A stretch of 22,610 nucleotides of DNA from a virus (Duplodnaviria; Heunggongvirae; Uroviricota; Caudoviricetes): IMG/VR virus record IMGVR_UViG_2526164650_000003; one strand, written 5' to 3'. Shown here piece after piece: positions 15,977 to 16,842 of this stretch. The notes under the pieces are model-generated. The model was not told where the DNA came from, ran no database searches, and saw nothing but the letters and a program-made list of their open reading frames with translations. The position numbers and the translations under genes are program-made. How positions within the stretch are numbered: position 1 is the first letter of the stretch; each line of letters begins with the position of its first letter.

Positions 15977-16064
15977 GGAGGCAGAATAATAACCATATGT
16001 CATCACATCTGCAAACTCATCTGACCACCAGCACGTTTAACGTCCTGTGCCATTTTTCAGGCAT

Positions 16065-16086
16065 AAAAAAACCGCTCGGCGGCGGG
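16065..16086 (-). terminator. Terminator-like hairpin plus U-tract between the Q-like gene and the tRNA array (tR'-like)
   Basis: On the minus strand a short GC stem (ccgc...gcgg) is followed by a 7-U tract (plus-strand a-run 16065-16071). A TTGCCG-16 nt-TAAAGT promoter-like sequence lies just upstream on the same strand. Confidence 0.3.
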
Positions 16087-16152
16087 TTTTGCTTACTTTA
16101 CCATCGCGTACAAAATCGGCAAAGTATCAGATTTGCATGAGATATATGCCTT

Positions 16153-16842
16153 TTAATCTACTTTTGCAATACTTTGCTTTGAAAATGCCGCTTTTTGTTC
16201 TGAACGTGTTCTCATCACAAACAATAAAGCCTCACTATCCAGTCGGTGAAAAATGTGTTTCATTACAACCCAGTGACCAGTAAATGTTTTGGACCAGTTT
16301 TTGGTTGTTACTCCCGCCAGTAATGCCAGCTCCTGATATTCATAACCTTCCCCACCAAAAAGTTCTGCTTTTACCGCCTGCGCCGCCAGCCAGATTAATT
16401 TTTTCAGGCGTTCCTGTGTTTTCTCTGCAATTTTCCTAGTGCCAGAATGAGCCTTAAACTCTTCCCACGCCCAGTGGGTTATGGTGATCTGATACTCCCA
16501 GCAAATACTTCCGCTGTAACACCACAACAACCAGGCTTTATAGTGCTCTTCAAGAGACAGAACAGCCCGCCGCCACGATGATGTCGAAAACGCAACCTGA
16601 CTGACCAGAGGAATTGACGCCCCCTTCGCCAGTGATTGTTTTCCCGGGATTGGTGGATTATCCCGCGTTATCATTTTTCCGGTCACCTCATCGCGGTACC
16701 GGATTTTTTTACGCCTGTAACGCCCTGTATCGAACATGGCATTCTCCTGCCAGGCTTCAAGCTGACCTTTTGTCGCCCCACTCAAATCAGCGGTGGCGAT
16801 AATGAGCTGCTCACGAACAAACTGTAAATACTGGTTATTCAT
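16153..16842 (-). CDS. Putative late-gene antiterminator (Q-like protein), assigned mainly by position
   Basis: 229-aa ORF starting MNNQYLQFVREQ..., with its ATG overlapping the rusA stop (ATGA). It sits between rusA and the promoter/terminator/tRNA region, where lambdoid phages place Q. I do not recognise the sequence family with certainty. Confidence 0.45.
   Translation of the reverse strand: MNNQYLQFVREQLIIATADLSGATKGQLEAWQENAMFDTGRYRRKKIRYRDEVTGKMITRDNPPIPGKQSLAKGASIPLVSQVAFSTSSWRRAVLSLEEHYKAWLLWCYSGSICWEYQITITHWAWEEFKAHSGTRKIAEKTQERLKKLIWLAAQAVKAELFGGEGYEYQELALLAGVTTKNWSKTFTGHWVVMKHIFHRLDSEALLFVMRTRSEQKAAFSKQSIAKVD

Follow-up and report, generated by a model that had tools for sequence, protein, structure and literature searches.

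The window, a 22,610-nucleotide stretch of Caudoviricetes DNA (IMG/VR record IMGVR_UViG_2526164650_000003), carries a compact module between rusA and a group of tRNA genes, with every feature on the minus strand. The genes that frame and make up the module are as follows.

16839..17198, minus strand: rusA (Holliday-junction resolvase), 119 aa; PF05866, PHROG 34
16153..16842, minus strand: Q antiterminator gene of the Q82 family, 229 aa plus stop; assigned through PF06323, PHROG 304 and identity to phage 82 Q
15667..15976, minus strand: tRNA array comprising a CAT-anticodon tRNA, Arg-TCT, Thr-TGT and Gly-TCC; predicted by ARAGORN, with Rfam tRNA scores of 60-71 bits

An earlier reading of this DNA, made from the sequence alone, had placed a 229-aa ORF in the Q position, translationally coupled to rusA, and both observations hold: the TGA of rusA overlaps the Q ATG at 16842 in an ATGA, and the junction reads TGTGCATGAAT. 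The Q ORF ends with a TAA at 16155-16153. In the program-made listing the frame is longer (16153..16848, 231 aa), being opened at a GTG (16848) ahead of this ATG; the MN... ATG is, however, the start used by phage 82 Q and the other homologues that were examined. The gene closes the nin/rus region and immediately precedes the late promoter, and remnants of FI, FII and onward to J are found downstream on the same strand. The first tRNA (15976..15901, anticodon CAT), which is named Ile or ileZ in relatives (PGAP and Stx-phage records), begins at 15976, and the spacer that separates it from Q is therefore 16152..15977, the 176 bp counted previously.

The protein after rusA

Q proteins form three unrelated families, of which PF06323 constitutes the Q82 family (PMC9388147). 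A search of Pfam matched the window protein to PF06323 (Phage_antiter_Q) with E = 9.4e-90 and 300.6 bits against a cut-off of 25, residues 4-220 aligning to positions 1-217 of the 220-position profile. No other Pfam family came in at E <= 1, the lambda Q (PF03589) and Q21 (PF06530) families included. Among PHROGs the protein matched phrog_304, an ‘anti-termination protein Q-like’ family, with E = 1e-105. Its alignment with phage 82 Q (X92588.1), which is also 229 aa long and occupies the same position after rus, contains no gaps and 174 of 229 residues are identical (76%; E = 3e-128). The Q of phage 434, annotated as ‘Q82-like’, is 72.5% identical to the window protein, and that of Gifsy-1 is 65.6% identical over 218 residues. 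The sequence-only reading had held that a Q at this position would belong to a non-lambda family and had proposed a profile search against the antiterminator-Q families; the full-length PF06323 match confirms that expectation. On these comparisons the protein is a phage 82-type Q late-gene antiterminator and a textbook member of its family. The gene is already known, its usual annotation being ‘bacteriophage antitermination protein Q’.

Lambda Q is a zinc-finger protein. No invariant or near-invariant cysteine was found in Q among 14 relatives, and the two cysteines of the window protein (108 and 114) are Ser and Arg in phage 82 Q; it is because no cysteine is conserved that a lambda-type zinc finger could not be seen by eye. 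Searches of PDB chains with the single sequence or with a 14-sequence profile returned no meaningful relative. In the PDB copy searched, a set that presumably includes the published Q21 complexes, the Q82 family thus seems to have no solved member.

That the ORF might encode an unrelated nin-region protein sitting in the Q position, the outcome that had been named as fatal to a Q assignment if coupled with the lack of a conserved promoter-like element, was also considered. No NCBIfam model matched the protein and no solved structure was matched by sequence or profile, results that favor such a reading. Against it stand the full-length Q82-family matches in Pfam and PHROGs, the 76% identity to a biochemically characterized Q, and the conserved 82-type pR', pause element and terminator found downstream (see below). 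The Pfam, PHROG and phage 82 comparisons refute it, and virtually no probability attaches to it.

The coding sequence shows no sign of decay as a pseudogene: the ORF is intact, and dN/dS values of 0.13-0.18 against relatives indicate purifying selection. At residues 84 and 176 the window Q does carry A, in place of the E and V found, respectively, in at least 90% of relatives. RusA, by comparison, is only 40% identical to phage 82 Rus, and the region is for this reason regarded as mosaic; in phage 82, moreover, ylcG/orf45 lies between rus and Q and is absent from the window.

The late promoter and its leader

The phage 82 record X92588.1 ends at the Q stop. The reference used for the 82 pR' was accordingly a prophage of E. 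coli DAM, in which the Q gene is 100% identical to that of phage 82 and has 82-type ybcN, ninE, rusA and ylcG as neighbors. Downstream of its Q gene this prophage has TTGCAA-17-TATATT, then TCATAT, and then the A at +1 followed by AATCTGATATTTTGCCAATGTTGTAC. Between -35 and +27 the window is identical to it at 53 of 62 positions, and the nine differences include the last base of the -10 hexamer. The comparison of the spacer with known pR' regions that had been recommended is thereby answered by homology to DNA that follows an 82-identical Q gene. The elements recognized in the window are listed here.

16164..16169, minus strand: pR' -35 (TTGCAA), within the last Q codons (..I-A-K..)
16147..16165, minus strand: likely Q-binding element (QBE), -31..-13, placed by comparison with phage 82; overlaps the Q stop at 16155-16153
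16141..16146, minus strand: pR' -10 (TATATC), 17 nt after the -35 and just past the Q stop
16134, minus strand: predicted pR' +1 (A), the 7th base past the -10, placed by spacing
16109..16129, minus strand: sigma70-dependent pause module in the layout published for 82 pR'; TG at +6/+7, -10-like TACTTT at +9..+14, GCC at +15..+17 (16120-16118) and the AT-rich GATTTTGT at +18..+25
16065..16134, minus strand: predicted leader RNA of ~70 nt from pR' to tR', put together from its parts
16065..16085, minus strand: tR'-type intrinsic terminator; hairpin 16083..16071, T-run (7 T) 16071..16065

Dissection of the 82 pR' identified a -10-like element with an extended -10, at which insertions at +9 or +15 shift the pause, as well as a GCC discriminator at +15-17, an AT-rich segment at +18-25 and a U at +25 where the pause ends (PMC5001585). 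All of these landmarks fit both the window, with +1 at A16134, and the prophage with the 82-identical Q. No other choice of +1 than 16134 brings GCC to +15-17 and a U (16110) to +25, and the pause is predicted at +25/+26. In general layout the window thus agrees with the 82-type region, in which TTGCAA is followed after 17 nt by TATAT(T/C), a pause element at +6..+14, GCC at +15-17, a U at +25 and a terminator within ~80 nt. The -10-like element of the pause module is TACTTT in the window and TATTTT or TATTGT in relatives.

Conservation of these elements was assessed by taking the end of Q plus 260 nt of downstream DNA from 94 loci, which yielded 46 distinct sequences, 44 of which were aligned at full length. 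The loci come from Escherichia, Citrobacter, Klebsiella, Raoultella and Buttiauxella, and their Q proteins are 58-93% identical. Four blocks are conserved: TTGCAA; the -10 hexamer exactly 17 nt further on; AAATCTGATAT; and a GC-rich hairpin with a T-run behind it. Across the window and 12 relatives (13 sequences), conservation per column was 0.93 for the -35 and likewise 0.93 for +2..+11, a value equal to that of the best-conserved coding segments, and fell to 0.21 after the terminator. The TTGCAA itself is invariant in a 7-sequence alignment and near-invariant across the diverse loci.

The -10 hexamer of the window departs from this pattern. Relatives outside its lineage have TATATT in nearly all cases, and phage 434 has TATACT; the T-to-C change at the last position is confined to a Shigella-type lineage (the window and loci L002, L003, L082 and L090). 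Locus L004, whose Q gene differs from that of the window by one nonsynonymous change, retains the final T. The last T of the -10 hexamer is among the most critical bases of sigma70 promoters. A consensus scan missed the window pR' because its -10 ends in C, while the aligned TTGCAA-17-TATATT of two relatives (L098 and L038) was flagged.

In phage 82 the QBE has been assigned to the DNA separating the -35 from the -10, in the range -31..+30 (PMC4914094). The corresponding segment of the window (-31..-13, 16165..16147) differs from the 82-type sequence at three of 19 positions and overlaps the Q stop, so that the qut site is likely to be only partly in the spacer, with the -35 and the probable QBE inside the end of the Q ORF. 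The sequence-only reading, which had assigned qut to the short spacer, covered this site within the coordinates it discussed, but the -35 and most of -31..-13 coincide with the last Q codons and the stop. It had also reported a -35/-10-like pair in the spacer without giving its position. Three candidate pairs are in fact present in and around the spacer, and the -35 of the conserved pR' is the one that falls inside the Q ORF. Any statement about Q-binding specificity in the window has to be read with these three QBE differences and with a Q that is 76% identical to that of phage 82, and would be provisional to that extent.

Of the two remaining pairs, one falls entirely within the spacer, ahead of the hairpin (TTGCCG, 16122-16117; 16 nt; TAAAGT, 16100-16095), and pR' and qut could in principle be sought there. 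Its hexamers are recognizable, their spacing is acceptable and it sits between the Q stop and the hairpin, just where a spacer-borne late promoter would be looked for. It was, however, unflagged by the consensus scan, the TAAAGT segment is poorly conserved (0.60-0.64), and phage 434 lacks the entire segment while Citrobacter and Raoultella have another sequence there, although all three keep the upstream promoter pair. Its geometry is also implausible, as initiation ~7 nt beyond TAAAGT (~16088) would coincide with the base of the hairpin, and the RNA would be ~20 nt long on reaching the T-run, less than a normal terminated leader requires; in addition, its TTGCCG contains the GCC (+15-17) of the 82-type pause module. 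The pair (16122..16095) was rejected as a promoter that is not conserved and lies within the transcribed leader; we consider it highly improbable that it serves as pR'. The third pair is taken up with the tRNA array below.

The short GC hairpin with a 7-U tract that had been noticed in the spacer is present at 16083..16065. Taken alone it would not stand out, since a scan for terminator-like sites found four in the window against 2.1 +/- 1.4 in shuffled sequences; its position is nevertheless conserved, its pairing covaries in 10 diverse leaders with compensation at four of nine pairs, and the phage 434 record annotates a terminator at the matching place. Relative to these homologues the window lacks one G in the 3' arm, which leaves a 5-bp stem, and the calculated dG is -6.3 kcal/mol compared with -13.0 for O157 PPompW-like loci and -12.5 for phage 434. 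An additional hairpin further upstream in the leader (+9..+18 with +32..+41), suggested by the minimum-energy fold, was not recovered by RNAalifold in the 10 diverse leaders and was discarded.

Together with the gene order, these elements make it highly probable that the module is the late-gene control unit of a phage 82-type lambdoid prophage, and they bear out the earlier impression of a compact pR'-tR' unit ahead of the tRNAs; the Q82 match and the conserved pR' run directly counter to the outcome that would have undone it. The working scheme is established for phage 82 and is carried over to the window by homology and spacing. Host sigma70 RNA polymerase would initiate at pR', using the TTGCAA in the end of Q and the TATATC past its stop, at about 16134. 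It would pause at ~+25/+26, when sigma70 engages the extended -10-like element (+6..+14) once more and the polymerase meets the GCC/AT-rich pause sequence. Q, bound between -35 and -10, would load onto the paused polymerase, and the Q-modified complex could then pass the terminator at +50..+70 and enter the tRNAs and late genes; without Q, a leader RNA of ~70 nt would be made and released.

A further question is whether this leader acts chiefly in trans as an sRNA, like Gifsy-1 IsrK or the StxS of Stx phages, and is more than a by-product of antitermination. The Rfam isrK model (RF01394) matches 16136..16065 over its full length, which coincides with the predicted leader ends, but weakly (17.4 bits, E = 0.31), far under the gathering score of 50 bits; apart from the tRNAs, no Rfam family exceeded its threshold in the window, isrK and STnc370 both being sub-threshold. 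Precedents have been published (PMC4825925 and PMC7547250). In Gifsy-1 of Salmonella the IsrK RNA has been mapped; it lies downstream of AntQ and its terminator can be read through (PMC4825925), and the arrangement resembles that of the window in that a promoter overlapping the stop of a Q82-family Q is followed by a short terminated RNA. There, true IsrK scores 79.3 bits on the isrK model, lies 33 nt past Q and begins 7 nt beyond a TATATT, the -35 that goes with it overlapping the Q stop. From its position after the Gifsy-1 Q, IsrK is thus a positional analogue of the window leader, while there is no demonstrable homology between the two sequences. The Gifsy-1 Q has a different C-terminus and the Gifsy-1 leader a different sequence, and IsrK has three hairpins and overlaps C4/a1b1-type elements that are absent from the window. 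Furthermore, the window leader folds no better than shuffled sequences (z = -1.18), and its promoter and terminator are both weakened. A principal role as a trans-acting sRNA is therefore viewed as unlikely next to the antitermination unit described above.

Transcription into the tRNA array

The remaining promoter-like pair lies past the terminator.

15986..16014, minus strand: second sigma70-like promoter (TTGCAG-17-TATTAT), between the terminator and the first tRNA

Among the three candidates in the spacer region this is the sole site flagged by the consensus scan, and its predicted start at ~15979 is ~3 nt ahead of the first tRNA. The promoter prediction thus found a pair in the spacer, though not the one that homology identifies as pR'. 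TTGCAA-17-TATTAT precedes the homologous tRNA in PPompW-like loci and precedes ileZ in an Stx2 phage whose Q is unrelated. The 17-nt spacer between the hexamers differs at eight of 17 positions between the window and these loci. From this distribution the tRNA cassette seems to bring a promoter of its own along when it moves between phages, and the window tRNAs probably also have one of their own in TTGCAG-17-TATTAT. With a conserved second promoter-like element past the terminator, transcription is therefore likely to have another way into the array besides the pR' leader; the earlier description of a leader feeding straight into the tRNAs stands in that pR'-tR' precedes them, and falls short in that a second conserved promoter-like element intervenes.

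Whether the array is transcribed mainly from this promoter, constitutively and with little contribution from pR', is a separate matter and one compatible with a Q82-type module. The preservation of both hexamers and the 17-nt spacing across PPompW-like loci and an Stx2 phage with a different Q family, despite the eight differences in the spacer, speaks for such a route, as does the absence of the final T from the -10 of the window pR'. On the other hand, the element is identified by its consensus match, and matches at nine of 12 positions are common (six sites in the scan, where shuffles gave an expectation of 2.0); initiation is also predicted just ~3 nt ahead of the mature 5' end of the tRNA. 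Weighing these points, we regard a predominantly constitutive supply of the tRNAs as a serious possibility whose chances are slightly short of even.

Comparable arrangements occur in several lambdoid phages. The closest are the PPompW prophages of E. coli O157:H7 and similar elements, the nearest phage records, which share the order rusA-Q-pR'-tR'-tRNA array and have a Q that is 92-93% identical, a homologous leader and terminator, and an IS110-family element just after the tRNAs. They differ from the window in keeping the TATATT -10 and a 9-bp terminator stem, and have different tRNA sets (Lys-TTT or Arg-TCG replacing some members) and a spacer of 194-210 bp. Phage 434 shares the -35, the -10 (as TATACT), the start region and the terminator position, and diverges in a leader ~17 nt shorter, GTA instead of GCC at +15-17 and the lack of tRNA genes after the terminator. 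In 82-type prophages the terminator sequence differs from that of the window and is followed by a holin gene, whereas the window has tRNA genes there. Stx phages of the 933W/Sp5 type (Q-pR'-tR'-ileZ-argN-argO-stx2) follow the same logic of Q, late promoter, terminator and rare-codon tRNAs, and their ileZ-type tRNA and the upstream TTGCAA-17-TATTAT are homologous to those of the window; their 162-aa Q, however, is of a different family, their pR' leader is unrelated to that of the window, the Q-tRNA spacer is ~313 bp and toxin genes follow the tRNAs.

Distribution and decay of the module

At least 80% of a 1-kb query from the Q region was found in 1223 of 5426 complete E. coli genomes, at 89-93% nucleotide identity, and the region is annotated in E. 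coli as ‘bacteriophage antitermination protein Q | tRNA-Ile | RusA’. A 100% identical Q protein together with an identical spacer was found in Shigella flexneri SFBU1023 and in one genome labeled ‘E. coli’; the window is therefore taken to be of Shigella flexneri type. The changes in the -10, the pause element and the terminator are common to other Shigella-type copies, and those in the -10 and the terminator are expected to weaken the promoter and the terminator.

The flanks have been reshaped by insertion sequences. The nin region is broken upstream of rusA by an element of the IS3 family (IS600-like), which cuts rusA-Q off from any early promoter. On the other side, past the tRNAs, comes an IS110-family transposase gene (13771-14967), and immediately after it FI, FII and the tail genes as far as J. 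Lysis, terminase and head genes are lacking, and the IS110-family element takes their place. With these losses in the cis elements and the IS-decayed flanks, the module looks like a relic in a defective Shigella-type prophage, one in which Q is intact but which may not operate as it does in phage 82. A more far-reaching version would have late control rewired in the Shigella-type relic, with pR' crippled, tR' weakened, the tRNAs made independent of Q and domesticated by the host through a mobile promoter of their own, and the leader turned into an IsrK- or StxS-like sRNA; taken as a whole this combination seems improbable.

With respect to the structure of the Q82 family the locus adds nothing special. 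Its significance lies mainly in correct annotation, of the gene and of cis elements corresponding to those dissected biochemically for phage 82. As the promoter and qut elements of Q82-family loci extend into the 3' end of the Q ORF, a search restricted to intergenic DNA will miss the -35 and the QBE. If the tRNA cassette does carry its own promoter, this would bear on the expression of phage-borne tRNAs in lysogens.

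The Q protein and the 3' end of its gene

The Q protein of the window, a 229-residue antiterminator of the Q82 family (16153-16842), differs at two conserved residues: positions 84 and 176, which are glutamate and valine in at least 90% of 14 relatives, are both alanine here. Position 176 falls within a conserved LAxLVGVxxKNWS segment that looks like a helix-turn-helix. At the end of the gene, the opposite strand holds a short pattern.

16164-16177, plus strand: TTGCAATACTTTGC, matching TTGY-N6-TTGY

At the homologous place in the phage 434 record, a TTGY-N6-TTGY pattern is annotated as a CII-binding site together with the -35 element of paQ, antisense to the end of Q. 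In the window, the palindrome TTGCAA is common to the plus-strand pattern and to the -35 hexamer of pR', the predicted late promoter.

The late leader and its terminators

The predicted leader RNA that runs from pR' to the terminator is matched over its full length, but weakly, by the Rfam isrK model (16065-16136, minus strand; 17.4 bits). In Gifsy-1 the true IsrK sRNA (3211-3287 of locus L095) likewise follows a Q82-family Q gene, in the position of the window leader, and IsrK appears to be the late-promoter leader of that prophage; there it overlaps the c4-a1b1 and C4 antisense RNA elements. Three terminator-like hairpins follow one another between pR' and the holin gene (2258-2426) in the 82-type late leader of L098, a prophage locus whose Q gene is identical to that of phage 82; in the window and its close relatives only one precedes the tRNAs.

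Insertion sequences and the genes beyond

Two insertion sequences flank this region, with further genes past the first.

17338-18600 (approximate), plus strand: IS3-family (IS600-like) element, interrupting a small nin-region ORF upstream of rusA
13771-14967: IS110-family transposase gene, with a long non-coding end at 14968-15666, adjoining the tRNA array downstream
19056-21242, plus strand: three genes, encoding an SPFH/Band 7 protein, a protein with an ORF6N domain and a 189-residue product, past the IS and opposite in orientation to Q

The transposase frame of the IS600-like element looks broken, because orfA contains an in-frame TAG following ..QRYSK. The three genes beyond it may be prophage cargo; a Pfam search with the 189-aa ORF gave no match. 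The IS110-family element stands in place of the lysis, terminase and head genes. Since ISEc20, also of the IS110 family, is annotated at the equivalent place, just past the tRNAs, in records of the O157 PPompW prophages, a shared or recurrent insertion site is suggested.

The tRNA cassette

15986-16014, minus strand: sigma70-like promoter TTGCAG-17-TATTAT, directly upstream of the first tRNA
15901-15976, minus strand: CAT-anticodon tRNA, called Met by ARAGORN

The homologous tRNA is preceded by the same hexamers and spacing in the PPompW-like E. coli prophage loci and also in an Stx2 phage whose Q is unrelated; the spacer itself differs from theirs at 8 of 17 positions. The CAT-anticodon tRNA is annotated as tRNA-Ile by PGAP in E. 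coli relatives and as ileZ in Stx-phage records, and is probably a lysidine-modified decoder of AUA. With Arg-TCT, Thr-TGT and Gly-TCC, it makes up the rare-codon tRNAs supplied by the array, a cassette that may carry its own promoter.
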